Part shown: positions 20,111 to 59,800 of the stretch, one piece after another
Numbering within the stretch: position 1 is the first letter of the stretch
Layout: each line of letters starts with the position of its first letter
Origin: Lingula anatina
Lineage: Eukaryota > Animalia > Brachiopoda
Reading direction: 5' to 3'
Length of the DNA: 64,000 bases
Assembly (NCBI GenBank): GCA_051362555.1
Contig: CM120642.1
Location: forward strand, 18,166,001 to 18,230,000
Program-made: the position numbers and the translations under genes
The notes under the pieces: model-generated
The model's database searches: none
Told to the model about the DNA's origin: nothing
Seen by the model: only the letters and a program-made list of their open reading frames with translations

Positions 20111-20112
<2 letters not shown>

Positions 20113-23932: not shown

Positions 23933-23942
23933 GTCGGTAAGC

Positions 23943-26131: not shown

Positions 26132-26141
26132 ACTTTTATAA
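26132..26141 (-). promoter_or_regulatory. Candidate TATA box of copy 3
   Basis: Minus-strand TTTATAAAAG ~100 nt upstream of the ATG at 26034; TATA-like tracts also lie upstream of copies 1 (~18340) and 2 (~23110). Confidence 0.35.
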
Positions 26142-27673
26142 AGCAGGCTTTGTCAACGGACCGTTCAGATTCCGACCATTCTAACTTAGGTAGGGTTTTT
26201 AAGACATGTTAAATCCTCCAAAGCGTCTTTTAATTTGCGTCCGCACAACCGGTTACATGTGTCTGACTGATGTTAATACGTACGTAAAGTAATTATTACA
26301 TGTGCTCTTAGGACTGTCAAAAGAGTCCGTTGACTACATTACTGTCTATCCACATTAAAACCTCATGTGCATTCAAACCTTTGTCATCACAGTGATTAAC
26401 TTCAGGAGAGAGATGATATTTTAATTAAGCTTAAAAGCTTCGGTAACGATTTCGTTGCGATATCGACATGGACTTCATTAAGGCATTCAGTTCTATTACA
26501 AGCGGACAGAAACCCGTTGCACATTTTGTCGATAACTTGCTTATATTACCTGGTTTCATTCGTGTTTGCCAATTGACGGAAATGGGCTACTTATTCATTT
26601 CGGTGGTGTGTAATGATTGGTGCCGAAACGTGATATCAATACACCATTCAGTTTGCGATGAAGTACATGGACTTTGTTTTACTGGCAACACGTACGCTTT
26701 TAATCAGTTCAAACTAAAACAAAATGTATAGGGGTAAATTACATTGGTCTATTGCGGGAAAGTTGGTATACATGTACCCACTCGAATATTAAGAGACAAA
26801 AGGTGAGTTCAGCGAGTGTTACTCAATTAAACAGAGGAACAGATCAGGTGGCAAACGGGAGATTGCTATGTTAAGAACTACACATTTGCCTCTTTAAGCA
26901 AAGTAATTCATGGCGAATACTGATGAAACATTTCCGGTTACAATGTCTGGCCTCAGCCAAAAGTATGAACAAATATGTCCGGTTAAAGTCTGACATCGAT
27001 TTATGTGAGATAAGACAACAAATGCTTTATGGTTAAGTCAACAAATTCAACTCAATCCATGACCTATACATATATAACATCAAAACAGGATTTCAAAGGC
27101 AAATCAAGACAAGATAAGAACGCACATTGCGGTAGCAGAGACAACATAGACAATAAGAACATAATCATTACTTTAGGATGAACAAATCCGTGTCAAGTCT
27201 GTAATAATCTGTTACCCAATGTCTCATTTTCCGTTGACACAATATACAAGCCAAGAGTTACAGTAAAATTGCTTTGACAGTAACTCGATATATTCTAATG
27301 GTGCCAAAGTGTGGCTAAGTGTTGTAGGGCCAATTGAATCAGTCAATATAACTTGTAAAATGTCAGTTGGATAAATCACCCGATGTTAGCCTGGTATAAA
27401 ACTCAAGGTAGATCGATAAGTAAAAAATTACCTTCATATTAAAAAAGGCGTTTTTCTTTTCTATTACTTATAATACTTATAGTGCAATATAATAGCATTT
27501 TCTGAACAGCGCGTGAGATGGTAAAAAGCGAAAAGGGTAATTTTAGCCAAAAGTGTTGAATTTTATTGCACTAAATATTTAGATAAGTCTTGAACACAAC
27601 GGATACGAGAAAAAAGCTTTGACCAATTAAGGCCATTTCAACGTATCGATCCATCTTAAATTCGTCGGTGAGC

Positions 27674-30075
27674 TTAGTGGTACAATTTATTTCCAGGATG
27701 CAAGAGTTCGGCGTACACCTCGCGGTCTGAACGTCGGGTAAGCTCTAGGCTGCTGTTGTAGACGTTGGAGTACTTGCTGAGCTCACAGGTTGCCGTAGTC
27801 TCCAAAAAATTCACTGATAGACAGCTGCAGTCTCGGCAACAGAGGGCGGCACATTCTGTGAGGGAGTGGACGTCATGCTCGGACCTGTATGTAAGGGATG
27901 CGTCAATACCCATAACGTAGCCTTGGTGAACCTTAAGCTGTGCACCATAAACTGAAATGGGCATCAAGGGATTCTTTGTATTGGATTGAATTTATGCAGT
28001 GCAAACTTATCATATAATTTGGAAATACTATGGAACAAGTAAATAATTAGTATAAAGAAGATTCATGATTTGTTATATAATCATCATTATCATACTTACT
28101 AGGCTCTCTGCACAGTTCTACGGTCGTCTGGATCTGTTCTGCAGATAAAGCAGTTCCGTACCATTGGACACACTTCATGGCACCAGAGAAATATCTCGTA
28201 TCTGCTGCGGAGCTGTGTCTGGCCCCCATACGCACAGGTGTATCGGTGATAAGATTCAGCTGAGGGGTATTCTGAAGCTGACCCACCTCGACCCCGTTCA
28301 CCCACAACTTGACGATCCCAGTCTGGAAATCGTACGTAAAGCCAGCGTAGACCCAGGCAGTATTGGAAAGTACAGGGAGGTAGTAGGACTGTGCTTCACT
28401 ATAGGGTTCCTTTATCAAAGGACGAAGGTACAATGATCCACTCACAATAGCCCATATGTGAGTCCCGTATTCATAATTGTTCTCACTACGGCGAAAATTA
28501 AAGAGTGGTCCCTGATTCGACATGTCTTCCAGGTGCACGTAAGCTAGCCACGTAAAGGAAGTGACGTTCAATGCTCCATTGTTTGGGATTTCGATGTAAG
28601 AAGAAACTGTCCCCGCAAATTTAGCCGAGCCTTCGCCGATTCCATAAATACCTACGTGGATAGCATAAAGTGAAACTGATAAACCGTACAAAGCGTCTTT
28701 TTGTGAATTATGAATTGCGTTAAACTGTTCTGTTTGATATTTGCCTCGGTTCGTGTGGCAATTCTCTTTTGCCCCTCGTTAGAAAAATCTCCAGGAAAGT
28801 GTACATTACCAAAAAGCCACAAGTAGATTTCAGCCAAGATTTAATTGAATAAAGGAAATAGATGTGCCTACAAATTGAGCCCAGCCTTCCATGATATTAT
28901 AAATACTCAATTAAATGATAAGTTTTATAATCCTTTAATCTGATACCATATCGCTTTTCTTCAAGTCTGTGATTAATTTACCTGCATCAAAATCGACTCC
29001 TTGCACAATGGCATGGTTACCGTTCCCACTAACGTCCAAGCCTCCAAATCGTTTAGTGAGTGGCCAAAATCCAGCTGGGCGGGGAAGATCAGCTAAATAT
29101 GCAAATACCATATGTAGATAATTTTTTTTTCTCGATAAGTTGTTATGAATGGGACTATGAAAGTTTGTGGTACACTGGGTTGGAGGAGTCATAAAGGTTT
29201 TTTTTCCCTAAAGCACTTCTTAATGTTGACAGCCTTACTGTAGACGCTAGTAAAACATGCAAAGTTCGTAGCAGAGAAAAATAGGGGAATAATTATGAAA
29301 GTGGAATAGTTTCAACCGGCGAATATCGGCAATTGCCGGTGTGACATGAATGGTACGTGTAGTTATCTAGGAACAGTAGTCTGTACTCCATTATTTTGTA
29401 CAGGTGACATTCGCCCCATATATAGTTTTAACCCCAATGCTCCGATAAAGCCTAAACTGTATTTATCATATGGGATCCCGGACTTCCATTCCATGATTAA
29501 ACTTTGTGTAGGTGGGTGTGTGTGGGGGGGGGGGGGGGGGGGGGGGGGTGCAGGAAATTGAAGTACCTTTAAAGCTATACAAGTTCTTTTTTTTACTTTT
29601 CCTTGGGCCTGCCGCAATATTCTGTATTTGACACCAGTTTTTAAAAAGAATCGTAATATCATTGTAGAGCAAAAAGTAAACAAAATGCTGGAAATATAGA
29701 CATAATATAAACATTTACTATAACATATCCTGTCCAATTCAATTGAGAAAATGACAATTTATGGGTCCATTTCAAACTCTTTCTTTCAAAACCTTTTTTA
29801 GACCGGAAAGTGTAAATTTTATCAGTCTTCGTCTTCATAACGACAGCAGCCCAAAACCAATACTTAGTACTAATTATATTCGCTCAATTCAAAACCATCA
29901 GTTCAGATTTGGTTGGCAGCGGCTGGTGCGATGTTAATGTCTGCCATAAAATTACAGTACATTATCACAAATTAGAAAATGAACACACAAGGGGACTATA
30001 CTCACAGCTTGTATCGCCAAACGCAATTTCGGCAAGTACGAATACCATGGATGACCAGGGAAGTAATAAAAACAT
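27674..30075 (-). CDS. Secreted LamG/pentraxin-like + PAN protein, copy 4 (~336 aa); exons 30075-30006, 29092-28982, 28651-28100, 27951-27674
   Basis: Signal exon MFLLLPWSSMVFVLAEIAFGDTS ending at GTGAGT; exon sizes 70/111/552/278; phase-1 GT-AG introns; open frame. Confidence 0.9.
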
Positions 30076-31741
30076 CTCGTGCCCTTGGACGCGTGTAGTT
30101 GTTTTAGAAAAAAGCATGAAATATAAAATGTTAAGTTTTCTGACTTTCGGATTTGCTTGTCGTCAATACTGCATACCCCGACAGGCTGACAAAAAGACCG
30201 ACCAAAGTGTTGTAGGCTTGAAAAGATCGTTTTTATCCAAAGAAAAAGGAAAACAATGTCATCATTCAAAGTAACTATCAAATATTCATGCAATCTAAAT
30301 TTTCCTTCCGTCTGCTAGTACAAAGAATAAGGCAAATATATATTGTTTCCCGTCGTCACACGTGTCACTTAAAACTCTGGGACCAAGAAGTGCCGGATCC
30401 GGCAGTGAAGGCCGTACGGCCAGTATTATGACGGCCAGAGGTTTGTTTTGAAGGCAATCTGTGAAAAGCACACTGCATGTGAGGTTTAATTTTTTCTTTT
30501 GCAATCGACCTCAAATTTCGATGTTGTAAATGATCTGGCGCCCAGTACCTAGACCAAAGTAGGGGAAGCGCAAACGCAAAGGTTTCATTGAATGAGCGAA
30601 AAGTTCTGGCCTTCATTCAAGAACATACTAGTGTTCTTGCAGTATTTTTCAGGGTGGTCATATTTTGTTGGTGCCCATTACTTTTCGTGTTTATCTTCAA
30701 TCATTTAACATGTTCTTTACATAAATTCATGTATTTTTACTGAGCAAATGTTTAAATAAGTAACCATTTTGCATAACATTCAAGGCATGATTCCGAAATT
30801 GCGGAGGTTTAGATTTGAATGAATAAAAAAGTAAGGAAGAAAAAATGCGCCACTTTAAAGATCTTCAATAATTTCCTTCAAGAAACACAATAATTTCGTT
30901 CGGCCTTGTCCATTGCTTTAGATTCCAATATGTGTATTTACTAGATCTATTGCGTAGATGTTTTTCATCGACAGCTTTGTTCTCGTGTTCAAGTTGATGT
31001 GTCAAGTAAATCAATACATGAAGTTCCATAACAATGACTATAGTTCCATAATAATGGCACGTCGAGAGAATTCTCTCAATTATTAAACATCTCTTCTATA
31101 AGCAAATAAAAAACAAATATTTAAATAGCATTACAAAAAACATATTCCAATGTTTATTTTGAAGACAATCTGTGAACCAGATGTGCGATATGGATAAGCA
31201 CGTTGCATTTGACATTATAATTTTGCGTGTATTTATTCAAAAAAACGTTGTGTGCATTGAAACCCTCGTTAAAACGAAAACTTAACCCGGGAACGAAAGA
31301 AAGATATAATTTAGCTGAAAAACTTTACTTATGATTTGTTGCAATATCGACATGGAATTCTGTTAAGGTATTCGGTTCTTTAGCAAGTGGACAGAAACCC
31401 ACTGCACATGTCGATTACTTGGTTATATTACCCGGTCTCCATTCGTGTTGGTCAATTGACGGAAATGGGCTACTTATTCATTTCAGTGGTGTATAATGAT
31501 TCCTGGCGTTATGCGATATCAATACACCATTCAGTTTAAGATGAAGTACATGGACTTTGTCTTATATACAACACCTTCGATTTTAACCAGTTCAAACAAA
31601 GACAAAATGTAACTTACATTGGACTATTGCAGGAAGTTGGTAAACCTATTCCAATACAAGAGACATGTGAGTCCATCGTATTACTCGATTAAATACAGGA
31701 AAAGAGAGACGCATCGACCCATCTTAAATTCGTCGGTGAGC

Positions 31742-34700
31742 TTAATGGAAAAATTTCTTTCCAGGATACAATAATTCGGCGTACACCTCGCGGTCTGAAC
31801 GTCGGGTAAGCTCTAGGCTGCTGTTGTAGACGGTGGAGTATTTGCTGAGCTCACAGGTTGTCGTGGTCTCCACATAATTCACTGATAGACAACTGTGGTC
31901 TCGGGAACAAAGGGCGGCACATTCTATGAGAGAGAGGACGTCATGCTCGGACCTGTATGTAAGGGAAGCGTCAATACCCATAGTGTAACCTTGGTGAACC
32001 TTTAGCTGTGCACCATATACTGAAATGGACGTCAAGGGCTTCCTTGTATCACATTGAATGTATGCACTGTAAACCTTTATGTCACTGGGGAATACTATGG
32101 AACAAGTAAATAAATAGTATAAAGAAGATGCATGATTTGTTATATTATTATCATTATAGTGCAGCCTATGGGTCGTACACCATGCGCCATGTACTGAAAG
32201 ACACATCTTTTCGTCTAAAATAATATTTAGGGACATGTTCGAATCCCAATTCAAACGGCAGTATCGGAGCACATAAATTATATTTGTAAAGATGTATACA
32301 AAGATGTGAAATAATCATACCATTACCATACTCACCAGGCTCTCTGCATAGTTTTACGGTCTGCTGGATCTGTTCTGCAGATAAAACGGTTCCGTACCAT
32401 TGGACACACTTCATGGCACCAGAGAAATATCTTGAATCTGCCGTGGAAATGTGTCTGGCTCCCATACGCACAGGGGTATCGGTGATATGATTCAGCTGAG
32501 GGGTGTGCTGAAGCTGACCCACCTCGACTCCGTCCACCCACAACCCAACCATACCGGTCTGGAAATTGTAGGTAAAACCAGCATAGACCCAGGCAGTATC
32601 AGTTAGTACAGAAAGGGAGTAGAACTGTGCTAAAGTATAGGGTTCCTTTATCACAGGACGAAGAAAAAATGCTCCACTCCCAGTAGTCCATATATGGGTG
32701 CCATAATCGTAATCATCCGCTGTGCGGCGAAAGTTGAAGAGTGGTCCCTGATTCGACATGTCTTGTAGGTGCACGTAAGCCAGCCACGTGAAGGAACTGA
32801 CGTTTATTGCTCCATTGTTTGGGATTTCGATGAAGGAAGACACTGCACCTGCAAATTTGGCCGAGCCTTCGCCAATACCATAAATACCTAAATGAATGGC
32901 ATAAAGTGAAACTGATACATTATGTTAAGCGTGTTTTTTTGTGAGGTACATGTTTGAATTGGTTAAAATTGTTTTAGGCTACTGTTTTATATTTGCCTTG
33001 GTTAGTGTGGCATTTCTTTTTTTCTCCCCCTCCCCCCTCCGTGAACAAAATCCTGGTTCCACCAGAGTGTACATTACCAAAAAGCCAAAAGAAGATTTCA
33101 GCCAAGCTTTTACTCAATAAAGGAAGACACTGCGCCTACAAATTGAGCCCAGCCTTTTCTGATATTTTACATACTCAATTGAATGATAACTTTTTATGAT
33201 CCCTTAATATGATAACACATCGCTTTTCTTCAAGTCTGTGATTCACTTACCAGCATTGAAATCGATCCCTTGCACAAAGGCATGATTACCGTTCCCACTA
33301 ACGTCCAAGCCTCGAAATCGTTTGGTGAGGGGCCAAAAACCAGCTGGGCGGGGAAGAACCGCTAAAATATGTAAATATAAATGCATATTTATATAATATA
33401 GATGCAATTTCCTTCTCGATAAATTTTGTACCTAAAGTACTTGTTAATGCCAACAGGCTTGCTATAGGCACTAATAAAACATAGTCATAGCCCAACGAAT
33501 ATCGGCAATTGGTGTCGTGACAGAAATGGTAGCTAGCTAGGAACCGCGTAGTCTGTTCTCAGTCATTTTGTACAGGTGACATTCGTCCCATGTAAAGTAG
33601 TAACCCCAATACTCCCACAATCCCTAAATTGCACTTATGGAATATATGGAATCCCGAACTTGTATAGCAAGAAGTAAAAAAAAAACGCTGGAAATATAAA
33701 CAAAATACAGACTTGACATTTAATAAGGAACATTTTTTCCCAAATTTAAATTCATCATTTTTTTCCTATTTTGCTGACTGATAAATGAAAATGAGGATTA
33801 AAATAATATTTTAATAGCTTTTAATAATCTTTCTGGTGTCATTGCGACACCAGTTCATTAACTGGATTAGCCAGTGAAGCAAACAAAACTACATTGACTA
33901 TTTTAAGTCATACGACAATCATTGAAACGATATTTTCCAATTATCCTCTTTAAAAGAGGTACACACCCCACAAAAGATCCTCATGTCAGTGTCTAGTCAC
34001 AGCAATGGTCGCTGTTACGCCTGACCGCATCTAGCTGCTACCGCATTTTTAAAGCGGCAAGGTATTCCTTGGGACGGTTAGAGTTTAACCTGGAATAAAA
34101 TTCCAGGCAACGGTCAAAACTTGTCCAATTTGGTTCAGATTTGTTGCAGGACATGCAGGCCTTTGATTCGGCGAGTAATGACCTACCCACATATTGTGTA
34201 TGCGGTTCAAAAGTGGCGATTTTGATTACCAAGGGAGCTGCTCATTCCCTTGGTTCTGTAAGTTATCTGCTATTAAAAGTCCTTTGTGTGAACCGGCAAT
34301 CTCATTTTGCAACCTAAAATTGTTCCTAAGGTGCCCCCTATCAAATGAGAGTCAAGTGGTTCCCAGATTATTCCTTTGATGTGGTTCAGGTTTTCATCGA
34401 TGACTATACCATTGGTGTTTTGGCACCAATGTGGTATCCACTGCAAATACTGGTGCTGTCAATGTCCCTAGTCACTTTAGAAGCGACACACGCTTCATCG
34501 TAGGCCTCTTTAGGATGCCTGCTAACTCTTTTTGACCAGTTGAGCGGTACAGGTGAAATCTGACCTCGATAAAGAAAGCCACGCGGTTTCAGTGTTCTAC
34601 CAAGAAACGGCCATGGTCCCCAATTCATTAGAGAAACATACGACGATGTTTTGCTGTTTACAGTGGCTTCCTCAGAGGACGTCTGGTATCCTAACCTGCT

Positions 34701-38996: not shown

Positions 38997-41657
38997 AATA
39001 ATTTGTAATGTTTGTAAGTGACATGAGTGAATAAGGAGCGAGGAGTGTTTTGTAGAGTAACTAGAGTTGATTGACATGCTCATATGGTATTTATACAACT
39101 GTGCGTAATGTAAACGGGGGGAGAAGGCCGCTAGAGATTGAATGAGGTAGAAATAGAAATGAAGAAAGCGGCGCGGGTAACAACCGGAAAGTAGTTTAAT
39201 AAATAATAAGAAAGACTATAACTGAGTTGTATTTGCTACCTCAGGTAACATCATTAGAAGATAAAGACAACAACTTCGTCACAATTTTTTATTTATGATC
39301 CAACTACCAAGCTAATGAACATTTCTGCTCATTGTTGAAATTTCCTTTTAAATTACATGCGTGGTATAGGAAAAATTTGCCCTAGAATATGCCGTTGTAT
39401 ATTGTACTATAATAGTACCCGCCCGATGCCAAATGAATCCAGAGAAAGGAAATACATTATAACCTTTACGGCAAAATGTTGCGATAAGGACGCTAAGTCG
39501 AGGTGATGATTTCATTTCTTTTAATCTTGATTCAGTATATGGTTGTTTCAAAAATTAATTCAAACTGTTTTCAACTTAAAACTTTCATTCCAGGTTCCAC
39601 TTTTTGTAGCAGTGTGTTAATTGTCATTTAAACAAAAGTTGATAATTAAAGGGTTTAGGATGGAAAAATTATCAGGAAGCAGGAAAGAATGGAGAAAAGG
39701 GCATTAATAAAGCCACCATTCACTCTCTTCGATTTTCTTCTTTCACCCATCCCTTCCTAATTTGCTAGGCCACTATCACCAGGTTCACAATCTAACATTG
39801 AGAAGACACTAGGACACAGGTTGAATTAAAAAATACTTATATATAGGAACTAAACCGAAGCCTTAAAATGTAATTAATGATCAATTTTTTTTTTACACAA
39901 TCAAGATGCAATATAAAAATAGCTTTATTATTATTTTTCAATATTTACAAAAAAAAAGTATACGACTAAAGGTTCCTTTTTCTTTTTTGGCTGAAAAACA
40001 TGAAAATATTTTTGCTGTGGAGATTTTTTAATCAACTAGTATTTTCTAAATCGAGCGACACATAAATACATAATTATTAAAACAGATGAAAGGAACAAAG
40101 AACTATGCGTTAGTAATCAATTTTAATATTTGAGATCTTAAAAGTAACTATGACAATAACACGAAAGCGCACCGAAAGTTGCGCGATGAATACCATTGGC
40201 CAGCAACGCCACACAAACTTTCACCCTAGTGTATAGTTCACGTGTTTTAGAAATGTTCCGTTATTATTCTGTAATAAGCCTTACGCATGAAATCCCTCTT
40301 TTTAAAAGCAATAGAATAAACTTTAATAATACATTATTATTGATTAACCATTTAGATCCTAACGATATTTTTACAAAGATATATATACAGGGTAAACTTA
40401 TAGACTTTTCAATGACACTATGAAGTTGCAATGAATATTACGTTGATACGAAGGCGTTGATATATTTACCTGTTCACATTATCTTTAGCTTGAATATTCT
40501 GAGGCAGTCATAGGAATATTAATATATTATACGTTTGCCAGCCTTTTCACATGGTCGTGTTTGTAACAAATTTCAAACCAGTGATCTGACCTCGCAAATC
40601 AGCCAGGTCACCTTTATCTTTCTTTATTTTTTCTGTTTGCCTATGATCATCTTTTTTATCCCTCCTTTTTCACGACAAAAAGATAAACTCCAAACAATCC
40701 GACTACCCTAATTTAACATACATTTTATTTTCTCATCAACGGATATCTCGGACCGGGTTTAGGGGGTGGGGGTGGGGGGGGCTGACCTCCCCTTCGATTT
40801 CTGACAAAAATCACACCAATGGTCTCCTCTTGAAATTAGAATTTGGACCAGCTGAATAATAGTTCTAAACCGTACCAAATGACACCATTCGCACTCTAAA
40901 ATACCAAAACTTTTCCTTTCACCTGGTCCGAACCTTATGCCGGGGGTGGGGGGGGGGGGGGGGGGCGTTTTGGGGGGGGGCTAGTAGACGTTTTATGTGC
41001 AAAAAATATTCATTTGTTTCAACTGTCTGGTATAAGTTAATCAAGATATTTCATATAACCTTCTGCTGCTTCCTTTCGTTTCGTAAAATCACAATAACGT
41101 GTTTTCTGTTGCTCAGAATAACAAGTCAGTTGATTACAACATATATTTCAGAGTACTGAGTAGGTGGCTGTACATGCTAAGTCCAGTGTACTTTCAATTG
41201 ACTCACTGCAATTCACTACAAACAAAACACCCATGCTCCCTCAGGCTGCCTCAAAAATGCAGTCACCCTACGTCCTATTACATTATCCTCATTTTGAATC
41301 AGTGCTCGAATACCACGCACTATAGGGGCCAGCGAGCAGTTCACAGCTACCTGTACCAGTTTAACGGACATCGTGCCTATCATAATTTTGGGGAGAAGGT
41401 ATGTTGCTCAGCAATTGTCCTCAAATTTGCCTGTACATTTCGCATCAACAGCTTAATACATATTATTCTTTTTATAAAATAAAATGATAAACAAACTAAT
41501 CAAAATAAAAATAGTAAATAAAATGTATATGATAATAAGATATTATAATTATTATAATCAATTTTTCGCATCACTGCCAAACGCCACCCCCTATGAACAT
41601 AATGACCTGTGGTGACGACAAGAACGCCACCATGTGACTATGTATGTCACTGAAGGT

Positions 41658-41665
41658 ATATAAGC
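41658..41665 (+). promoter_or_regulatory. Candidate TATA box for the repeat-array transcript
   Basis: TATATAAG followed ~27 nt later by an Inr-like TTCATTT (~41685), at the transition from AT-rich to GC-richer sequence. Confidence 0.5.
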
Positions 41666-41685
41666 GCGAGATTTTGAAATTGCGT

Positions 41686-44600
41686 TCATTTAACACAGAC
41701 AGATCTGGAGCAACAAGGAGGATGTACTGCGCCTCGTATCAAGCGAAAAGGACACAGGAGTCAACTCGCATTTCTCCGAATCTTTTCCTCATCCCAAGTC
41801 AACGCATCGCTCATCGACAAATGCTGTTTCTTGCACACGCAGTCGTCTGGACGGTGGATTCGACGTTTCTCTTAGCTGGCCAGCTTTAACCTTCGCTTCT
41901 CTCCACGAGGACTCGTCACTCAGGAATCTTCGCAGGATACACCATCGTCTCTCTGCTTTTGTGGGCTTCATTGTTTTAGCGTCATTGCATGTGTTTCCAT
42001 GCATTCCAGGTTATTTCTTATTGCAGGTCCAGGATGCAGAGTGCTGATATAGGTAAGAAAGCTAATTAATCCGTATTTATTTCTGTTAACAGAACTCGAT
42101 TATGGCGATTCCCGATAGAGCTCCCACTGACAACTGCAAGGAGAAGAGGGCCACGTCTACACTTCAGATACTTCGATCAATCCTTGGTGCCAGCGAGTCC
42201 TGTCATGGTCTGTCTACAAGGTGGCTGCATTGGGGGAAGAGTCAACGACATACGGTGTTTCACTGAGATGGAGAATCCTTAAAGGTATTGTGTCATTGGG
42301 AGGGGGGAAAGTATAGAAAACTCATTAATCCATTTTACTTTGTTTACAGAACTCAAGGTGGTTGCATTGGGGAGAACGTCCAGCGAGTCCTGCCATGGTC
42401 TGTCTACGAGGTGGCTGCATCAGGGGAAGCGGCCAGCGAGTCTTGCCATGGTCTGTCTACGAGGTGGCTGCATCGGGGTAAGAGTCCAAGGCATATGGTG
42501 TTTCACTGAGAAGGAGAATCCTTAAAGGTATTGTGTCATTGGGAGGGGGGGGGAGTATAGAAAACTCATTAATCCATTTTACTTTGTTTACAGAACTCGA
42601 GGTGGTTGCATTGGGGAGAACGTCCAGCGAGTCCTGCCATGGTCTGTTTACGAGGTGGCTGCATCGGGGGAAGCGTCCAGCGAGTCTTGCCATGGTCTGT
42701 CTACGAGGTGGCTGCATCGGGGGAAGCGTCCACGGATATGGTGTTTCACTGAGATGGAGAATCCTTAAAGGTATTGTGTCATTGGGAGGAGGGGAAAGTA
42801 TAGAAAACTCATTAATCCATTTTACTTTGTTTACAGAACTCGAGGTGGTTGCATTGGGGAGAACGTCCAGCGAGTCCTGCCATGGTCTGTCTACGAGGTG
42901 GCTGCATCGAGAGAAACATCCAGAGCATCCTGCCATGGTCTGTCTGCGAGGTGGCTTCCTCAGGGGAAGCGTCCAGCGAGTCCTGCCATTGTCCGTCTAT
43001 GAGGTGGCTGCAGCGGGGGAAGCGGCCAGGGAGTCTTGCCATGGTCTGTCTACGAGGTGGCTGCATCGGGGGAAGCGTCCATGGATATGGTGTTTCCCTG
43101 AGAGGGATAATCCTTAAAGGTATTGTGTCATTGGGAGGAGGGGAAAGTATAGAAAACTCATTAATCCATTTTACTTTGTTTACAGAACTCGAGGTGGTTG
43201 CATTGGGGAGAACGTCCAGCGAGTCCTGCCATGGTCTGTGTACGAGGTGGCTGCATCGGGGGAAGCGTCCAGCGAAGCCTGCCATGGTCTGCCTACGAGA
43301 TGGCTGCATCAGGGGAAGCGTCCAGCGAATCCTCCCATACAAGGCATATGGTGTTTCACCGGGAAGGAATATCCTTAAAGGTATTGTGCCATTGGGAGGG
43401 GGGAAAGTATTGAAATCTCGTTAATCCATTTTACTTTGTTTACAGAACTCAAGGTGGCTGCATAAGGGGAAGCGTTCAGCGAGTCCCGCCATGGTCTGTC
43501 TACGAGGTGGCTGCATCGGGGGAAGCGTCCACGGCATATGATGTTTCACTGAGATGGAGAATCATTAAAGGTATTGTGTCATTGGGAGGGGGGAAATTAT
43601 AGAAAACTCATTAATCCATTTTACTTTGTTTACAGAACTCAAGGTGGTTGCATTGGGGAGAACGTCCAGCGAGTCATACCATGGTCCGTCTACGAGGTGG
43701 CTGCATCGAGAGAAACATCCAGAGCATCCTGCCATGGTCTGTCTGCGAGGTGGCTTCCTCAGGGGAAGCGTCCAGCGAGTCCTGCCATTGTCCGTCTATG
43801 AGGTGGCTGCAGCGGGGGGTGCATCTAAGGCATATGGTGTTTCACTGAGATGGAAAATCCTTAAAGGTATTGTGTCATTGGGAGGGGGGGAAAGTATAGA
43901 AAACTCATTAATCCATTTTACTTTGTTTACAGAACTCAAGGTGGTTGCATTGGGGAGAACGTCCAGCGAGTCCTGCCATGGTCTAAGAGGTGGCTGCATC
44001 GAGAGGAAGCATCCTGTGAGTCCTTCCATGGTCTGTTTATGAAGTGGCTGCAGCGGGGGAAGCATCTAAGGCATATGGTGTTTCACTGAGATGGAGAATC
44101 CTTAAAGGTATTGTGTCATTGGGAGGGGGGAAAGTATAGAAAACTCATTAATCCATTTTACTTTGTTTACAGAACTCAAGGTGGTTGCATTGGGGAGAAC
44201 GTCCAGCGTGTCCTGCCATGGTCTGTCTACGAGGTGGCTGCATCAGGGGAGTCCAAGGAGGCCTGCCATGGTCCGTCTACGAGGTGCCTGCATCGTGGGA
44301 AGCATCCAGAGCGTTCTGCCATGGTCCGTCTACGAGGTGGCTGCATCAGGGGAAGTGTCCAGCGATTCCTGCCATGGTCCGTCTACGAGGTGGCTGCATC
44401 GGGGAAGCGGCCAGCGAGTCCTGCCATGGTCCGTGTATGTGGTGGCTGCATCGGGGGAAACATCCAATGAGTTTGGCCATGGTCCGTCTACGAAGTGGCT
44501 GCGTCGGGGGAAGTGTTCAGCGAGCCCTGCCATGGTCCGTCTACGAGGTGGCTGCATCGAGGGAAGCGTCGATTATGTCAATTCTCAGAGCTGACAACTT

Positions 44601-44760
44601 CAAGGTAACCTGTGTTATTGGGGGAGAGAATAAGACTATATTGATTTTCCGTTGTAGTCTGTGCCATAAAGCGATCACCTTACTGGCCATTTGAAACTTT
44701 TCTAAAATCTACTGGTCTGAATCGGGGTTCAGTGGTCCAAATACAAATTTCAATAAAACT
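41686..44760 (+). ncRNA. Candidate multi-exon repeat lncRNA (tandemly amplified exon+intron unit)
   Basis: Introns 42052-42092, 42285-42349, 42528-42593, 42771-42836, 43120-43185, 43381-43445, 43571-43635, 43867-43932, 44108-44172 and 44605-44657, all GT...YAG with pyrimidine tracts. Internal exon lengths 178/177/283/195/125/231/175/432 do not keep frame. AATAAA at 44752. Transcription is inferred, not shown. Confidence 0.5.
42190..44570. repeat. Higher-order tandem repeat: ~24 copies of a 53-bp monomer grouped into units by eight ~100-bp spacers, each containing an intron-like 65-66-mer
   Basis: Monomer ccagcgagtcctgccatggtctgtctacgaggtggctgcatcgggggaagcgt (period 53, e.g. 42381 to 42434); spacer ...atggtgtttcactgagatggagaatccttaaag-gtattgtgtcattgggaggggggaaagtatagaaaactcattaatccattttactttgtttacag-aactc. 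Confidence 0.97.
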
Positions 44761-45298
44761 GGTCTGGATTTTAACATAATATTGTTATTAAAAAGACCTT
44801 GACTTTTTTATTTATGTTGTAACAGTTAAAAAGTAAATTAATTCAAAAGCTCTTTTGAAAACTCGCATTAAAATCTAATGGACGTAGCACTTTATTCACA
44901 CATTCTCAAAGATCTACTTGTCCAAGCAATAATTAGTATGTTGCAGTCATTGATTACACAGAATGTTGAAATATTTAAAAAAAAAACAAAAGTTTGATAA
45001 TTCAATAAACAGTCTTAGTAGTAATTAAAGGTGTTGCCGTTTTAGACAACAAAACGAAAAGGAGAAGAGACCCTGGAAAACCCCAACGTGAACACGAGCA
45101 GCTTGTCAACAAGAAGTGCAGTGACCTGAAGACCTGCACTTGTTTGAAATTAAAGAGAGTTTGGAAAGTGTTGTGTAGTCATTGTAAGTGTAGACATTTG
45201 TTTTCTATTTACAACTTCATCAGGAAATTCCTGGTACATACATTTTACAGGTCAAAAGCTCTTTTAATTTGCCATAAACTAAGAAAAGCCCCACTCAT

Positions 45299-45332
<34 letters not shown>

Positions 45333-48300
45333 ATGTTGAAATGCTACCGACCAACATTCAAATCTTCAACAGACTCGATGTGACACCAGTGGCGTTGTGT
45401 CAATGGTCTAGAGTACTAGATTGGCCTCCATCTATCTAGGCTTCCTTTTATTCCTCTTATTCTTCAGTCACTTTCTTTTAGTAGTATCTTGGCACTCTCC
45501 CAATCCGTAGTGTGGTTTTCTCGTGTTGTGTTGTAGAAGTAGACCAGCTTTTCTGTGTAGATTGTTTTTTTTTTTGACTCGAATGTATTTTTTCCTTTCA
45601 TTTATCCTTTCCTATTTCTTCCTGTGTTCTTTACCTCTACTGCTCAACTTTCGTATCTCCAAAAATTTTTGCAACACCCCATTGGATTACATGGAGTCTG
45701 AAGAAGTTGAGAACCAAAGCCTTATGAAACAACAAAATGCTTATTAAAGGTGTTTAAATACCAGTTACATATGTTCTTTGTTGCAGTTACCACAAGATTT
45801 CCATTGTTTTTTTTTTTACTTTTGTCTAAACATGTTGCATTTCATTTGTAGGCTACGAAAGGGAGTTTTCTAGAAATAATACCCGAACGCAGATACACTG
45901 TACCATCAAACCTTAACCAAATGTTCAAGATGTAAAACACTTTACGGCGCCAGCAAAGAGCCCATGTAGCCACTTTCATTGATGGTCGGGCGTCCTAGCA
46001 GTCTTGGGTTTTTAAGGACGGAGATTGTTCTGCAAACAATTAGAGAATGTGGAATGGTAGTGAAGAGCGATATCCTGAATGCAAGAGGAATACTGGTACA
46101 ATCTAGTTATGTACCCAAGTCTTTTGGTTATTGAGAATTTTTGTGGTTCATGGGTCACAGATATGAATGGGATGAAATTGCATTTAGAAACTTTTTTCAC
46201 TTATGGCAGTGAGCCATTTTATTTCAATAGCTAAAGGGAAAACTGAGGTTCAGAATGATCATTCCATAAATGATAAATTGATTAAGATGAATTGTGGTTC
46301 TGTATGAAAATTTTAAGTCAGCCTCTACAGTTATTATAATAATTTTTAAAAAATTAAATCAAGATGTTTTATCCACATTCTAAATGCAGATAGCTTTTTA
46401 CTCACAAAAACAACATTTATGGTCGTCTTTGTTTTATTTCAATCTTGGTGATGTAGTCATTTTTCAAAATTGTGCTTTTGATGATGTGGATTTGTTCGTC
46501 AGTATAGCGTTTGAGAAGATCATAACCCGCACACTAACCATATCTCACAACTGTGTAAAATCTGACTTGGTGTAAATGCTTTTACACGAAGAGGTTTTAC
46601 ATTGATAGCCTGTGCAAAATCTGTAATGAAATATTTCACGTTTCAGAAAACATTTCATTATATTGTTTGCACAGTCTGCTCCTCGCGAGGGATGGCTGGG
46701 TGCACACAGTCAGCTTTCAAGATTGAGGATCGCACATTACTAATATTACTAATATTATGATTTTCTCGAGTGTTATAGTTGACAAACATATCTAATTCAT
46801 CACATATGCACTTTTTTCTCCGGATCAAAAAATTCATATTGAAATTTACATGGACGGCCATACAGTGTAATGTGAGATCTAAAATATTTCGAAGCAAGCT
46901 TGCTATATTCTTTACTTGCATCATAGTTGCAATGTTAAAGTTTAGTTAAGGTGCCCGAGTTATAATCATGTTATCTTTGTATGTATTTTATACAAAAAAA
47001 AGAACTTTAATCAAATTTTGATGGATGCTTTCACTTGTAAAAGGAGAGAGTCGATTTATGACTTCATCCCCTTAGATAAAATTAAAATTAGTCTCGGTTT
47101 AATTATGTTAAGACTGTAGTAAATGTCTCAATTGGCTTCAGTGTCTCTTTCTGTAGGAATTACTTTGGTAAATTCTTATGCTTCTTTACGTGTACAAGTA
47201 TATAATAGTGTATATAGAGGATAGTTTGTAATCACGATTGAAGTTTATTCAGTTGCACCATGCTGTCTAAAACTGGACAATATTCTTCCAATTGTAAGGC
47301 GCTGTGCCGATAAAGAAACTATCATGTTATAAAGACTGAAGTCTCCGGGCGTGGGCATTTTCCCGGCATTACCCCACGAAGGGTTTAGACGGGTTTTCCC
47401 CACGGCCCTCGAGCATCGGGCATCAGCTTCCGACCACAGGACAAGCATTATCAGACTGTTTGCATTCTGATGTTAGATGATAAAAACAGGAATGGAAAAT
47501 CTTAATTTTAAGTAATACTAAGTGTTTTTTGAAATTGAATGCTACTGTTAAGATTGTACATTATAGTTGAATAAAAATTATAATCTTTAATTTTTTTTAT
47601 TTGTTGATAAAACGAAAGACATGAACAGATGGCAAAATAATCACCAGACTTCAAAATTAATGCATATACACGCGGCTCGTTTAATTATCAGTCGAAATTC
47701 TCTTCTCTTCAATTGTCCCTTTTCTCACTAAAATTTAATTGCAAATTTTGCGATTTCTGTCACGCCCATTACTTCCATAAAACCAGGCAATGACCAGGTA
47801 ATGAATTGATTTTTGGTCTTGGAAACAAAGCTGCGGTGTCGCGTACCTTTTTTCTCCGAAAATAACTCGAGCCGATACCAAGACTTAACTGAGTCGGATA
47901 AGTCCCTAAAATAGATCTCTTTACATAAATAAATCCCGCTGTAGATGTAAGAACCCAACACCTCCTGATGTTAGTGAAAGGGGACATTATGTATAAGGGC
48001 GGATCCAGGATTTCCTAGAGGAGAGTTTGTTTCTATTGATTCCCCACCCAAAGAAAAACAAGCATTTTTTAAATTCAATGTGTTGACGAAACTATTCGAA
48101 TTGAGCATTTTTTAAATTAAAGGGATAATAGCTCTTCGTATGAGATCTATATTTCACAATAAAAACATTAATCATTAAAAATAACAAGAATTATTCTGAC
48201 ATATATTTCTAGTTATGAGACGTAAAACTCATATCTCTACTCTCTTTGATAATTTTTAACATTAAAAAGGCCATAACCGCGGCGTAAAACTGCCGAACCG

Positions 48301-49777: not shown

Positions 49778-49859
<82 letters not shown>

Positions 49860-49861
<2 letters not shown>

Positions 49862-50032
49862 GGGGTAGCGTTAGCAATTTTTTTTCACTTAGCCAGATCA
49901 CCACATTTTTGTCAATTTGTTATCAAAATGGTTATAATTTGGCTAAAACATGTCATATCAAGCCCTTTTTCTTTAACCAATTTAAGTCAGTTTTAGCATT
50001 TGGCTAAATTGGCGAGTGTTAGCGCTACCCCA

Positions 50033-50033
<1 letters not shown>
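49860..50033. mobile_element. 174-bp TIR element inserted in a (TA)n microsatellite upstream of the main TRMT1L coding exons
   Basis: ctggggtagcgttagca ... tgttagcgctaccccag, flanked by ~80 nt (49779-49859) and ~65 nt (50034-50098) of pure TA repeat. Confidence 0.85.
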
Positions 50034-50101
<68 letters not shown>

Positions 50102-53200: not shown

Positions 53201-55180
53201 AGAAGTCAATCATTGTACAGCATATTTGTAGGACTTAACATATCTAGTTGATTGAAAAGATGCAGCAAGGTGTGTATATGACATTTTCTCATGCTTTGCA
53301 GTGATTAAAATCACATGCATCTGGCCAATTCATGGCATGTCCTTTAGTTTAACCAGTAAGAACTGTACACCTTCATATATAATATTTATGTGTTTTTATT
53401 TTTGTAGAGGCCCCATACACCCTGCTTCCATGTGACTGTACACAGAAGTATCCTGGGAAGACAGCATTGGACCTAGGTCCCGTGTGGTGAGTGGATGGGT
53501 GTGATGAATGGGTGGATGGGTGGGTGGGTATGGTACTGAGGTGGGTGGGTGTGGTGAGTGGGAGGGTGGGTGGGTATGGTACTGAAGTGGGTGGGTGGCT
53601 GTGGTGAGTGGGTGGGTGTGGTAGTGAGGTGGGTTGGTGGGTATGGTAGTAATGTGGTAGGGTATGGGAGTGAGGTACGTGGGTGGTATGTGGGTGACCC
53701 CCGTGAACTTGAGGTACATATTTTTGTGATTATATTTAACCTGGATTATGTGTCACAAGCATGGTGGATGAGTTTTGTGAGAGAAAGGTAGTGATGTTTT
53801 GGGGTTGGGTCTTGAAGGGGAGGTTTGAGCTTTTAACATATGGTAAGTTCTTAAAAGAGAGACAATAAAACAAATAAAAATTTGCAAAATAACAATGTTC
53901 CAATTAGAATGAGAGGTTGTTGGAAATTGAAAGCAGACAAATTTCTTTCATACTTATTAATTAGGGTGCGGGGACATTTACTCACTCCTTAAATGTGAAA
54001 TGTTATGGATTTTAAAACTTTTTTATCTGTCAACTGTTAGATGTCAACCTCTTCATAATTGAAAATACACAGTTATTAGAAATAACAACATGAGATAATG
54101 TGGATTGTTGCTTTTTTTCCAGGATTGGTAAGATCTTCTCCTGCACGTTCATCAGTAAAATGCTCAAGTCTGCGAGGAATCTGAAGCTGAGTTCTAGACT
54201 ATGTTCTTTGTTAGAGACAGTGCATTGCGAGGCTTTGTGTCCAGAACAAGTGACACCAAGAACTTTAACTAACCACTCACATCTGGGGATTACAGATGAA
54301 ATGAGAGGAAAAGAAAGTGGCCTCAATAAAGGTGGAGAAAATGAGAGAGAAAAAACTTTACATAACCAGACCCAGGGATGTGTTAATATAAGTGAACTAG
54401 AGGATGCTCCAATTACCAGTAATTTAAAAAATGTGGAAACAACAGAGGCTGTAGCAAATGACAGTCAGGGAGAAACACCTTCATCCCTGAAGAGAAAATC
54501 TGAGGCTTTAGAGTCACCAGAGGGAGGCACGGTGGCCAAGAAGAGAAAACCTGAAACCTTGAGTGTTGAGGACCCAGTCCCTTTCTATTACAGTGTTCAC
54601 AGGCACAGGATAAAGGGAGTGGATTTGCCAAAGTAAGAATAACTGATAAATTGGGATCTTGGATTTTATCAAGTACTAGTATAATAATTATTTTTGAGAA
54701 GAAAAGTAGTAATATTTTAATGCCTGACTAACCAAGAGTATCTTCATGAATTTGACTTTGAAACGTGGATGAATATTTGAAAGGAGTTACTTGGATATGT
54801 AGAAATGGTCATAATTGCTTTGAGAATTTAATTTTTAAAAAATCTCTTCCAGTAGGTGGACAATTACACAGTTGAATTTTAGCTGGTTTAGACATAAAAA
54901 TGTAGTTTCTTTTTGAAATGATTAACATTTTATTGCCATCTTTGCTATTATTATAAGGTACAAACTTAAGGTAAGTTCAGCTCCAGTGTGTTTGAATGTG
55001 TAATAATACCATTATCTTTTTCTTTCTTTCAGAGCCCCCAAACTAGTCCACTTCCTCCAGTCAGAGGGATATTGTGCCAGTCGAACCCATTTCAATCCAA
55101 CTGCAGTGAAAACTTCTGCCAATCTTGCACAGTTGAAGGCAGTGTTATTAAAACATTGCAAGACAGTTGATACCACTTGA
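50287..55180 (+). CDS. TRMT1L: TRMT1-like tRNA (guanine-N2)-dimethyltransferase; exons 50287-50393, 50625-50710, 51538-51808, 51973-52185, 52666-52856, 53408-53486, 54123-54632, 55033-55180 (possible extra first exon 49246-49272)
   Basis: Trm1 motifs FYNPRMTICREISL, CLDAFSATGISGLQWKKHLG..VKVTMND (GLQWxKHLG typical of TRMT1L rather than TRMT1), FDFVNLDPYG, ITSTDVASLYGK, EHFVLVAVRICRGP, LGPVW.G.IF, PFYY, SRTHFNPTAVKTSA; all junctions GT-AG and in phase. Confidence 0.92.
51218..51404. mobile_element. MITE with poly-G interior in a TRMT1L intron
   Basis: caggcccgtggc ... gctatgggcctg terminal inverted repeats. Confidence 0.65.
53487..53697 (+). repeat. G/T-rich minisatellite (GGTGGGTG/GTATGGTA units) starting at a TRMT1L splice donor
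   Basis: Repeated gtgggtgggt, ggtatggtactga and gtggtgagtgg motifs; many GGG runs (G-quadruplex potential). Confidence 0.8.
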
Positions 55181-56855
55181 CCAAATTTTGTTTTGATGTC
55201 GAGCTATTAGCCAGTAGACAAAATCACAAATTATCAATTTTTCAAAAATGAACAAAATGCATTACAGACACTGAACTTAATTAAGGAAGTGACCTATATA
55301 AGAGAAGAGGGTTTTTCACATATTGGCACAGCAAACATATGGAATTTGACTTAGGTCGCATTCACAACAGATGATACTGGTTCGAGGATCAAATATTGCA
55401 GACCCTACCTGAAAACAAGACCTTCTAATCCCTTAGTCTCTATATCTTTGCCTTCCCTGCAGGGACCTAGCAATTAAACCATGAAGTGAAGTGGATATTT
55501 AATCCATGTGGAGGCGAAGAGACCATAAAAGGATTAGGCGATCTTGCTTTCATGTTGGGTCTGCCATGTTTGATCCGCAGATCAGTAGATCCGAGGATCA
55601 TCTGTTCTGAATGTAACCTTAGGTGCCCAGACTGGGTTTTTCTTTCAATATTAATACAAAAACTCTGAGCCAGTTTCAAATTTTGTATGTTGTGATTTTG
55701 CAATATTAATTTGATAATTTTTTCATCTGCTTTATTGAGCAAAGAATATATATTGTAATATACTAGCCACAGTCTCGAGATAAAATGTTTTACCCCTAAT
55801 TACAGTGCTTTGTGCAATTTGGAGAAGTTCTTATTAGTTTATTGTAAAATTATGCTATTTGACACACTTGTAATATTGTACGAGCTCAGTAATAGAACAT
55901 AAAATTTACTTTGAAATTAAGATCAAAATGATGTATCTGAGCCATATTTGAAAATGACAAAGTTTGTATTTTCATAAAAAATTAAATAATAAAACTTCAC
56001 TGGGTATCTTGTAATATTTTATTTTGTACATATATACAAAAAAATTGGCTTGCAATCTTTACAATTTTGCAATGCTTGGGTCCACATAGCTTTTTAACTG
56101 CACAGGCTTTACTTCTAGACTGCATTTTCTGGCACAAGGAAATTTCTTGACTTTTGAGACCCTATGTGTTCTAATAAACAATAAATCTTAGCAGTTGCCC
56201 ACTTTTATAAACCACAATCTCGTATCTTAATGGGCTTATTTTATCCATAACTTAAAGGTGGGATGGACATCTGATTTCAGCAACACTGCTACAGAACGTG
56301 ACAATGTAAACAAATAAAAGATACTGAAATTGTTTCATACATGCTACTAGTTACAGACATCATCAATATTAACACATCTTAGCTTGGAATGGACAAATAT
56401 CACTGAAATGTGTGATATGAAACTACAAATACTTGAATGGGTCAATACATTGCATCACTGAACTATTCAAGAATGGGAAAACATATTGGAATTGTGAAGA
56501 TGCAATGTGAAAACATGAAGCTCCATGGAAATGCATGCTTATTTTAACTGCACTAGCCAAATGCTTTACATGTAGAGCATTCTATATAAGTAGCAATAAT
56601 GACAAACACTTGGACACAAATGCCTGGGTCTTGGTAATCTCACCAAGGGGTGACCATCCAACGCCAGATTTATTGTCACCTGTAAGCATCAAAAACTCGA
56701 AGAAATGCATTTTTTTTTTACCAAATGGAAAAGTCTTGGTCATCAGATGACTAACTGTGAATTTTGACCAATACGCAAGCCCCCATTGTCCACAATCTAT
56801 TTGCAGCATGCTCTTGAAAGAATTTGAACATCATGTCTATACCTGAAGATCAGTT

Positions 56856-59800
56856 CTAGAATACCCAGTATCTAAGAATGAGCAGGATTATTATGACAAT
56901 AACGATAACTGCTCCTATCTTGGCATATGAGGACTTGAGGTTCAAGTAGTGGGCGTCTTTCTTGTACTTTTGTGACAGTGTGGAAAGATTGGCTGCTTTG
57001 GTGTCCAATGCTGAAATGAAATGAAATGAAATATTGTAATATAATGTAATATTGAGCAAATGTTTCTCTGAGAACAAAAGATATGCAGTTAGCCACCATG
57101 TTTGAGTGTCTTAGACTCTTACCAACCTGGCCACACTTGGTTTCAAAGGCCCCATTCAGAATAGGGGACTAACTAGTCCAAGGGTCAAATACGGCCGACC
57201 CACTTGAAAACTTCCCCATGGGATATCTATTCAGTGTCTATTAGCGGATTAGACGGCAAGATTTGTAGTGGGTCACCATATTTGACCCTCTGACTAGTTA
57301 GTCCCCTATTCTGAATGTGGCAATAGTAGCATTTATGTCATATACACAGATACATGCAAAATCCTCTTGTGCAAAACACTTGTGGCTTATATAAAATTGC
57401 ATGTCTCATAACATCCATTACATATATGACCTAGTAAAATACAATAAAAGAGCATATATAAATATGATACTTAGTGTTGAAGATGCAGAAAAAAACAATG
57501 TAAGATTCCATTATATTTCAAAGGACTGGATCTTTGCACCTTTTTCCTTGTCAATGCTTGCAAAAAGTTCCCCCTCTATAACTTAGCATTCACCAATAAG
57601 CACTTGCATATAATTCCACATGGAAATCCCCATCATAATCATTAAAATTGTTCATACACAAAGCATTAATTTACCTGATAATGCTTCCCCTCTCTGTAAT
57701 ACATCATCAATGTTTTGCACCATGATTCTTTGGACATCTTGTAGTTCTGTGTTGATATGTCCAAGGTTTCTTCTAGCTCTGGAGTCCATGTATGATTTTT
57801 TGGCCTTTTGAATATATGTATCTGAGAAAGACAGGAAACGATTCTATTATAAAATTATAAATGTTATATTCAAGAAATGAAAAAAGGTAGATGCTCACAA
57901 AAATATTGCCACATGTTACCTACATAACGTGAAATAAATTATCACTTTTTCATTTTTTTTCACAATTACTGTAAATTATGCCCTTCATTTTTTTTAAACA
58001 AAGGAATTTATTTCATCTTTCACTTGTCATAATATTCTACAAATAAATGCTCAAACAAAAATGCATTACTAATTAATTAAATGTATTCCAGTAGCAAAGA
58101 TATATCTATGCAGCGTTCTCTTTTATTAAAAAAAAAAATGACCAAGTCATTAACATCTTTCCCACTTTGAAAACTATAATATAAATGGCCATCCCAACAG
58201 TCCATTCATGAAATAAAACATTCTGTTCATTTTCATCTGAAAGTTGTATAACTCGACTAGACCTACCAAATTCAATAAAACTGTATGGCCTGGATACTGT
58301 CTGTATTTTTGTCCCATATTGCATATTAAATTCTGTTTGTAAATCTTCTAGGTATGTGTATGCTAGTCTTTTGGAAAATGATTGTTCACACAGGACAAGG
58401 TAACACACCCCTCTCTCAATCAGGTAGCTGAAAAAAAGAAAAGATCTTCACTGCAGTACATCCACCTAAAATTTAATGCAGAATTTGTTAAATATCTTTT
58501 TAAGTAATTTAAATGATTATTAGTAACAGTAAACTAGAGACTGGACATGGAAACAATAATTATTCACAGAATGTTCATATGTTATTGTAGATGTTTACCT
58601 GTGACAGTTTGTTAAGTATTGTGTCTATGTACATTAAGTTGCATGGACACAATGTTGTGTTAAACTGCTGGTAGGCAAACTCATACGCCACACCCATGCA
58701 CACACACATACGCACATGCATATGAACATACTCAAAACACACACACACACACACACACACAGACGCCTACTTACTGGAAAACATAAGCACCAGCCTCCAA
58801 GCTACATCTGACTGGGGATTGTTCGTTGAGTTTCTTAAACAACTGTTTGGCTTTATTTTGATACTCCATCAACCCTCGACCAGACTGAAAGAAAATTGGG
58901 AAAATCAAATCGAAAAATAACATTTACTAAAATGATTTTGCTGTGTTTCATTATAATTATGATAGTTCAAAGAATATGAAAAAGTTTATTTATTAATGTG
59001 ATTCTTATTGTTAATTTGGTTGAGGTGGGGAACTCTAACATTTAAGTTACTAGTACATCTGTTCTACTTGTGATTCTTCATTTTTTGGGTTAACTTCTAA
59101 TAATGTAGCCTTGGCTACCATCAACTGTTGAAATCAATGATTTCAGTAATGCATGCAAAATGAACATAATACTGTGAGGATGTTCCCATTCCAGATGATA
59201 TAATTTACTGTTACCAAATTAGCTGTTCCTATTTGACCATTGCAAAAAAAGGGCAAGGGGGGGGGGGGGAGGGCTTGCAATCTATCATTTCCCATGGATA
59301 AGGTTTAATCAGTGCCTTTTCTTATGGGTACTTTTTTCCCCCAAGTACTCATTTCCGCCTTATAATTTTCCAAACTGTCTGTTCCCATTGGCATCATATA
59401 CCATATGCACCCCCGTTATCATTTATGAGTCCTTACCAGTAATTTAGTTGCTAGTGGTATGTTTAAATAATATCTGTTATCACCATAACTTAAACATTCT
59501 GGTGTATAGAATTATCAGACTGGACTGTCAGCTTTTGCATGTTAATCTATCTAATCATAATGATTTGGTATCTTAATTGCAAGTTGGAAAGTCAAGAGTC
59601 AATTTGTGTGAGAAACTCTAATAAATTTTCAAAAATCGTTGACACTAAAACTCACCATTACTCTGCCTTTTTCCAAGTGATAAATGTACGTTCACATGAA
59701 CGCCGAGTTTATCACGCAAGCATGATCTTTCAACTTAGAGTTTACGATAATGTCAACCGAAGAAACTGGCCAACGTGGAACTTGAAGTTTGAACTCGTGA

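Follow-up and report, generated by a model that had tools for sequence, protein, structure and literature searches.

Can a tandem array whose repeats are partitioned by near-identical, intron-like segments be a working gene, and what would its RNA be for? This question is raised by positions 41658 to 44760 of a stretch of 64,000 nucleotides (nt) from the brachiopod Lingula anatina (assembly GCA_051362555.1, contig CM120642.1, positions 18,166,001 to 18,230,000, forward strand; referred to here as the window), in which a homeodomain exon at 5353-5682 matches the Lhx3 of this species at 100% over 110 residues. An earlier note, made from the sequence alone, had proposed that the array gives rise to a spliced, repeat-rich non-coding RNA by amplification of an exon+intron unit. 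According to the analysis presented here, the locus is very probably a transcribed, likely non-coding gene made of such exon+intron repeats. Stranded RNA, a joint at a repeated donor and the lack of a kept reading frame speak for the proposal, whereas its predicted 3′ end and its argument from conservation could not be upheld.

The array comprises 24 full monomers with a period of 53 nt, as many as had been estimated before, plus a half monomer opening each of its eight exons. Monomer likeness ranges from 71 to 100% with a mean of 86% (44 columns, 23 monomers compared). All eight of the near-identical segments of 65 or 66 nt were found as GT..AG segments with the ends previously assigned to them, and the lengths given for the array exons (178, 177, 283, 195, 125, 231, 175 and 432 nt) are exact; exons 4 and 7 have a common 159-nt block with 154 identities. 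Elsewhere in the window no monomer copy was found when up to 6 mismatches in 27 were allowed, and a 25-base monomer pattern yielded 0 matches in metagenomes. The features of the locus are as follows.

41657 to 41664, + strand: TATA box TATATAAG, from sequence, 31 nt before the A of the initiator-like motif
41686 to 41691, + strand: initiator-like (Inr-like) start TCATTT, from sequence and read depth
41688 to 42052, + strand: exon 1, unique sequence
42027 to 42092, + strand: older, diverged homologue of the repeated intron, 66 nt, with an alignment score beating 1000 of 1000 shuffles
42093 to 42284, + strand: exon 2, likely the ancestral unit, with block B (~95 nt), a monomer and the exon-end block C (~38 nt), from reads and RefSeq models
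42186 to 44570, + strand: two-level repeat array, 53-nt monomers within exon+intron units (exons 3-10), from sequence
42285 to 42349, + strand: repeated intron 1 of 8, 65 nt, GT..AG, with an internal G-run
42528 to 42593, + strand: repeated intron 2, 66 nt; a copy of the same intron is read through by the RefSeq model XP_013382232
42771 to 42836, + strand: repeated intron 3, 66 nt
43120 to 43185, + strand: repeated intron 4, 66 nt
43381 to 43445, + strand: repeated intron 5, 65 nt, in the most diverged unit (unit 5)
43571 to 43635, + strand: repeated intron 6, 65 nt
43867 to 43932, + strand: repeated intron 7, 66 nt
44108 to 44172, + strand: repeated intron 8, 65 nt
44605 to 45045, + strand: read-supported last intron, 441 nt, GT..AG, its first 53 nt being an old homologue of the repeated intron
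45046 to 45330, + strand: last exon, with a provisional 3′ end, missed in the earlier note

Transcription was followed in four of nine RNA sequencing runs labelled L. anatina (X1, X2, X4 and X7, from three studies), of which ~6% of the reads of X1, X2 and X4 and 25% of those of X7 were used. Reads were aligned to 41300-45200 at 90% likeness and to a control region (54000-58600) at 85%. The array region received 209 (X1), 269 (X2), 106 (X7) and 6 (X4) reads, nearly all of them 90-95% alike. In the control coding exon no fewer than 21 of 353 nt (5.9%) carry differences that are fixed or nearly so, a count from 40 of 293 rows listed, and the sequenced animals are therefore of a diverged lineage. 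As the animals themselves are diverged, the reads can be derived from the orthologue of the array, or perhaps from a second locus. A paralogue family as the source of these reads was rejected for the same reason, and RNA editing was rejected as T>C changes outnumber A>G changes, a count made without matched DNA. The overall identity classes of the control were set aside, as they are dominated by a dispersed repeat at 57146-57321. The divergence of the control exon agrees with L. anatina being a cryptic species complex, as stated in parts of PMC8146825.

In X1, X2 and X4 the first mates on the − strand correspond to + strand RNA, and X7 is unstranded. This orientation was read against two neighbouring genes that behave oppositely, one on the + strand, which we take to be TRMT1-like from its domain (Pfam TRM, below its cut-off), and one on the − strand, which we take to be SEC22-like (Longin). 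The array RNA is from the + strand, and all X2 bins with depth are one-stranded. Read depth in X1 and X2 is 0 in 41562-41692 and 11-13 in 41693-41823, and seven X2 reads carry a loose 5′ part with a median of 36 nt before 41725, which places the start at ~41689, with no sharp start among the reads listed. The TATA/Inr-like start that had been suggested at ~41686 is thus supported by its motifs as well as by the reads. The observed/expected ratio of CpG is 1.05 in the 300 nt up to 41686 versus 0.18 in a housekeeping exon, and a high promoter CpG is taken to fit a regulated rather than a housekeeping gene. The depth of exon 1 relative to the control exon was 0.94 (X1), 1.02 (X2), 0.13 (X7) and 0 (X4), ratios that are rough because of the different thresholds (90 vs 85). 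Expression is therefore sample-restricted, being housekeeping-like in two runs and almost absent in X4. Exon 2 shows the highest depth (29 in X1, 47 in X2), and exon 1, block B, the monomer and block C each occur in the runs of two or more studies of the diverged animals.

The reads of these relatives contain 19 joints, of which 15 are listed. Most reads leave exon 1 near 41957-41960; four X1 reads join 41957 to 42092, where the skipped ends are not a clean GT..AG and the nearest GT lies at 41961. The acceptor at 42092 is used in joints, and further joints return to 42092-42104. Eight X2 reads end at 43866, just before the donor of repeated intron 7, and then continue into the start of a block-B exon (agreement 0.73). 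At the far end, 44604 is joined to 45046 in four X1 reads (three starts) and one X2 read. The last exon defined by this joint has a depth of 1-3 (X1, X2) and 13 (X7) at 44968-45098, reads being aligned to 45200 only. The AATAAA at 44752, which had been named as the 3′ end following the array, lies inside the intron used by these diverged animals and is unsupported, as no read of the relatives falls on 44706-44967, although it may be used in the lineage of the window. A genomic run of 30 A with CATG on each side is found at 45301-45330, just after the last exon; as it could prime oligo-dT, polyadenylation is putative. Taken together, the end of exon 10 and the start of the last exon form a homologue of block B, at a score that 0 of 1000 shuffles reached, so that the entire gene is a mosaic built from few blocks.

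No kept reading frame is present in the locus. The spliced model contains no long open reading frame (ORF), as expected from the claim that the 53-nt period and the exon lengths break any frame. A 55-codon ORF from 41722 in exon 1 is not kept; a 2-nt deletion at 41823 in this exon occurs in 9 of 16 (X1) and 8 of 16 (X2) reads, about half of the reads show 1-nt deletions in the monomer, and the monomer period is 52 in the reads (two joints) versus 53 in the window. At most 3 of 10 substitutions in exon 1 and at most 4 of 8 in exon 2 are silent in any frame, and no frame is favoured (40 of 248 substitutions listed). Within 42186-44570, the sequence GCCATGG, which is a strong context for a start codon, occurs 19 times, with one copy in most monomers; this is possibly due to chance, and no conserved ORF follows. 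The consensus monomer is stop-free in every + frame.

A word-based protein search yielded two relatives among 7998 scored candidates, both being RefSeq models from Lingula: XP_013382232, on the scaffold that carries Lhx3, and XP_013398288, on a 36-kb scaffold (genes LOC106153014 and LOC106164805). A HMMER scan of 1.84 billion representatives returned one Lingula model and two unrelated tandem-repeat translations, so that neither search found a protein relative outside Lingula, brachiopod genomes not being among the data searched. No Pfam family was identified, with Pfam hits on array ORFs having no stretch that passes alone, and no credible fold was predicted (pLDDT, the predicted local distance difference test, 0.31; best Atlas score 0.84, which is chance level). 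The two models differ from each other at 17 of 140 residues. The first 53 residues of XP_013382232 match window exon 3 at 52 positions, copy-specific variants among them, after which the model goes on with B-monomer-C units that are absent from the window. Such units recur in both models, which join C to B at the donor/acceptor position four times, and an intron presumably sits at these joins. The RefSeq "uncharacterized proteins" are thus likely ORFs that were mis-called on a non-coding repeat RNA.

The short segments beside the array turned out to be related to its repeated intron. The earlier note had described two divergent flanking introns of 41 and 53 nt. Short flanking segments do exist, but the first intron is 40 nt long (42053-42092) and is the 3′ part of the 66-nt homologue at 42027-42092, and the 53-nt segment (44605-44657), a second old homologue that likewise beats 1000 of 1000 shuffles, has no read support as a last intron of its own. 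Both older copies retain GT and AG, and one end of each is used in reads (acceptor 42092, donor 44604). A further possible GT..AG intron of 66 nt (41961-42026), followed by a 26-nt micro-exon, can be seen in 41961-42052; both are skipped by the reads, and the possible intron shows no homology to the repeated one (227 of 1000 shuffles). The array introns are indeed shorter than those of the neighbouring genes, the shortest of which measures ~135 nt in a partial check and not ~150 nt as had been stated.

Intact splice signals in diverging monomers had been brought forward as a mark of conservation, a conclusion that is not supported by the comparison of columns. Of the 66 intron columns 9 are variable, versus 22 of the 86 columns in the exon flanks that were duplicated with the intron (p = 0.10, or 0.43 when unit 5 is left out). 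For the four invariant GT/AG columns the chance probability is 0.3-0.4. Eight copies with intact splice sites are therefore no sign of selection; in copies as young as these they are expected without it. The final 21 intron columns are invariant in all eight copies (p 0.002-0.008), a stretch that was picked after seeing the data.

Neither monomer, intron nor blocks fold better than shuffled sequences (eight folds, z −0.10 to +2.37), the repeated intron even folding worse (z +1.95). A search of 41000-45500 against Rfam gave 0 matches at E ≤ 10, and no canonical G-quadruplex was found. Hairpin, mirtron and precursor microRNA (pre-miRNA) readings were rejected on these folds. Tandem repeats with a hammerhead or other ribozyme in each unit are known as retrozymes; a ribozyme per unit was not found here, there being neither an Rfam match in the region and at the cut-off given above nor a stable fold. 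Together, the folds and the lack of Rfam matches argue against microRNA (miRNA), mirtron, small nucleolar RNA (snoRNA) and ribozyme products. The alternative of a small-RNA precursor, which the earlier note had left standing, is thereby weakened for hairpin types only.

The explanation favoured here, to which we assign a probability of roughly 0.45, is that the locus is a transcribed, likely non-coding Lingula gene whose RNA likely serves as a landing pad with many sites for RNA-binding proteins. The ancestral unit would have consisted of B, monomer and C followed by the intron. In the lineage of the window one copy would have lost B when a deletion occurred at a microhomology of 3 bases (judged by eye); the shortened unit would then have been multiplied by unequal crossing-over, with monomer number shifting inside the exons. 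The spliced RNA would present two to three dozen copies of an unstructured, G-rich module of 52-53 bases. Proteins that bind G-runs or purine-rich motifs are, for example, of the hnRNP F/H or SR type. Putative binders of such motifs would be held by an RNA staying in the nucleus, for which module number would matter and module order would not. A role as protein-binding scaffold is plausible on this basis. Unit order differs among the window, the RefSeq models and the reads. Promoter, exonic modules and splice positions are kept across lineages, and order and number drift, which suits an RNA valued for many copies of an unstructured module; a minisatellite without function could, however, give the same pattern. 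The many-module model of protein binding has been reviewed for Xist, Rsx, Firre and NORAD (parts of PMC6316617). It appears improbable that the locus encodes a brachiopod RNA of chromatin or of a nuclear body, restricted to one sex or to the germline, that arose independently of Xist, Rsx and roX, with the cassette as working module, each unit adding monomers and a splicing event, and number and order varying freely between animals.

Several observations weigh against a spliced and functional array RNA. Only 5 of 590 reads are at least 99% alike, so the RNA evidence comes from relatives rather than from the haplotype of the window. Junction reads, the check proposed in the earlier note, join the repeated donor to an exon start and span the last intron, but among the 15 joints listed (of 19) there is none that skips a single 65/66-nt segment exactly. 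Depth over the bins that hold introns is not significantly lower (p = 0.29), and depth dips were accordingly rejected as evidence of splicing. At 42079, inside the first intron, 10 (X1), 10 (X2) and 4 (X7) reads provide cover, pointing to partly unspliced RNA, and XP_013382232 reads through one intron copy. Moreover, 36 X7 reads extend upstream of 45052 with a sequence unlike exon 10, and the column-variation test provided no evidence for purifying selection on monomer or splice sites. The lineages that were sequenced may lack the shortened exon start found in the eight window copies, and the missing exact joints would then be explained; we infer that splicing of the eight window introns follows that of their homologues.

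Among the other explanations, the most probable is a neutral by-product, although it is rather unlikely in our view: a transcribed minisatellite would have grown inside a gene that is non-coding or dead but has a working promoter, and the co-copied intron would be spliced by its inherited signals out of a functionless RNA. The differing layouts of window, RefSeq models and reads, the alike variation of intron and exon columns and the unstructured RNA are as expected under such a scenario. It accounts less readily for housekeeping-level expression from a well-spaced TATA/Inr that persists at a coding-exon divergence of at least 5.9% in two of three studies, for the GT and AG kept in the old intron copies, and for exon 1 and monomer still mapping at ≥90%. 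Precursors of PIWI-interacting RNAs (piRNAs) are typically single-stranded, restricted, repeat-rich and fast-changing, and as the array RNA has these properties, it might be a repeat transcript that is spliced, polyadenylated and then processed into piRNAs or other small guide RNAs; this is distinctly unlikely, and the lack of hairpins makes Dicer/Drosha routes unlikely in particular.

The chance is slight that LOC106153014 and LOC106164805 are protein-coding genes in which the repeat is read in rotating frames and of which the window holds a broken allele. The existence of two models, the stop-free monomer frames with their GCCATGG sites and an exon 2 of 192 nt, a multiple of 3, fit with this idea; frame-breaking indels in half of the reads, the lack of a favoured frame, the divergence between the models, one of which reads through an intron, and the absence of family, fold or relatives outside Lingula in the protein searches do not. 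Very improbable, too, is a host gene for a small RNA derived from the intron. The snoRNA host arrays of SNORD116 and rat Bsr are of similar build. The 21 invariant intron columns would suit such a host, as would its analogy to C19MC-HG, which likewise consists of repeated exon+intron units (parts of PMC2691840), whereas the 65-nt intron is unstructured and without Rfam match. Besides, the intron after block C in the relatives looks by eye, in loose read ends, like the diverged 42027 type, which would make the intron more variable in sequence between lineages than the exons are. A dispersed high-copy repeat or transposon fragment, with reads from many unrelated loci, is equally improbable. In its favour, the reads show a likeness of 90-95% and are heterogeneous at many sites, and the second model lies on another scaffold. 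Yet the reads are one-stranded and run from exon 1 through the last exon, monomers are confined to the array within the window, the control genes are similarly diverged, and at the true dispersed repeat (57146-57321) both strands carry reads, whose loose ends are mixed.

The array is flanked on one side by five tandem PAN-LamG genes (14.6-33.4 kb, − strand) and on the other by the TRMT1-like and then the SEC22-like gene (~50-58.5 kb). The five LamG+PAN copies (14600-33400) are ~70-85% alike, with RefSeq relatives on several further Lingula scaffolds, and look like a lineage-specific expansion adjoining Lhx3. Copy 4 is 96-98% identical to a RefSeq PAN-LamG protein that shares a 346-kb scaffold with Lhx3, which suggests that the window is likely another haplotype or assembly than RefSeq. 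The dispersed repeat at 57146-57321 is short, has inverted ends, lies inside an intron of the SEC22-like gene and attracts hundreds of reads; it is likely a miniature inverted-repeat transposable element (MITE). The TRMT1-like gene holds a second inverted-repeat element in its 3′ part (55454-55560), where three runs have opposite-strand joints, and in its 5′ region (49780-50098) two long (AT)n tracts surround a 175-nt insert with short inverted ends.

To our knowledge, long non-coding RNAs (lncRNAs) that act as repeat scaffolds have been described almost only in mammals and flies. The locus provides a candidate example, with expression, in a lophophorate; three or more versions that differ in layout are available for comparison, and introns multiply in it together with their exons. 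Should the sequence of the module be kept and its order and number drift, the unit of selection would be the module; the locus may equally be a transcribed minisatellite. In the papers searched nothing was found that names the two gene models or such a Lingula locus, the supplements of the Lingula genome papers, which may give tissue expression, not being covered. It has been proposed that transcripts become functional lncRNAs through the local expansion of repeats (parts of PMC6316617), and the Lingula locus represents a natural test of this proposal.

Among known systems, the following statements being drawn from parts of the sources, Firre/FIRRE is likewise a non-coding, multi-exon RNA in which one local repeat, the repeating RNA domain (RRD), recurs from exon to exon, namely in 7 of 13 human and 11 of 23 mouse exons, and it is lineage-divergent (PMC4820808, PMC6316617). 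Its RRD measures 156 bp, and nuclear retention and hnRNPU binding have been demonstrated, whereas the role of the Lingula RNA is putative. Unlike Firre, the Lingula locus carries its 53-nt monomer in tandem within exons, has a near-identical 65-nt intron amplified with it and spans 3.7 kb, and the likeness considered here is one of architecture. The likeness to Xist, Rsx and roX drawn in the earlier note likewise appears to be architectural only, and nothing connects the locus with dosage compensation. Xist and Rsx share with the Lingula locus a short module that is locally expanded in tandem and could supply many protein-binding sites (PMC6316617), but they are far longer, X-linked and cis-acting and silence a chromosome, and the Lingula repeat is instead interleaved with amplified introns. 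C19MC-HG is, like the array RNA, a non-coding transcript, made by RNA polymerase II, with tandem exon+intron units and tissue-restricted (in Lingula sample-restricted) expression (PMC2691840); there and in the snoRNA host arrays, however, the intron carries the product (a pre-miRNA or snoRNA in a unit of 400-700 nt), whereas the 65-nt Lingula intron has neither hairpin nor Rfam match. Within the spiralians, the octopus lncRNAs Zmast and Zfest resemble the Lingula RNA in being strongly sample-dependent and kept between close species, and differ from it in being Z-linked, sex-biased and 14-18 kb long, with the word "repeat" occurring once in the source text as far as it was available (bioRxiv 10.1101/2024.12.09.627507).

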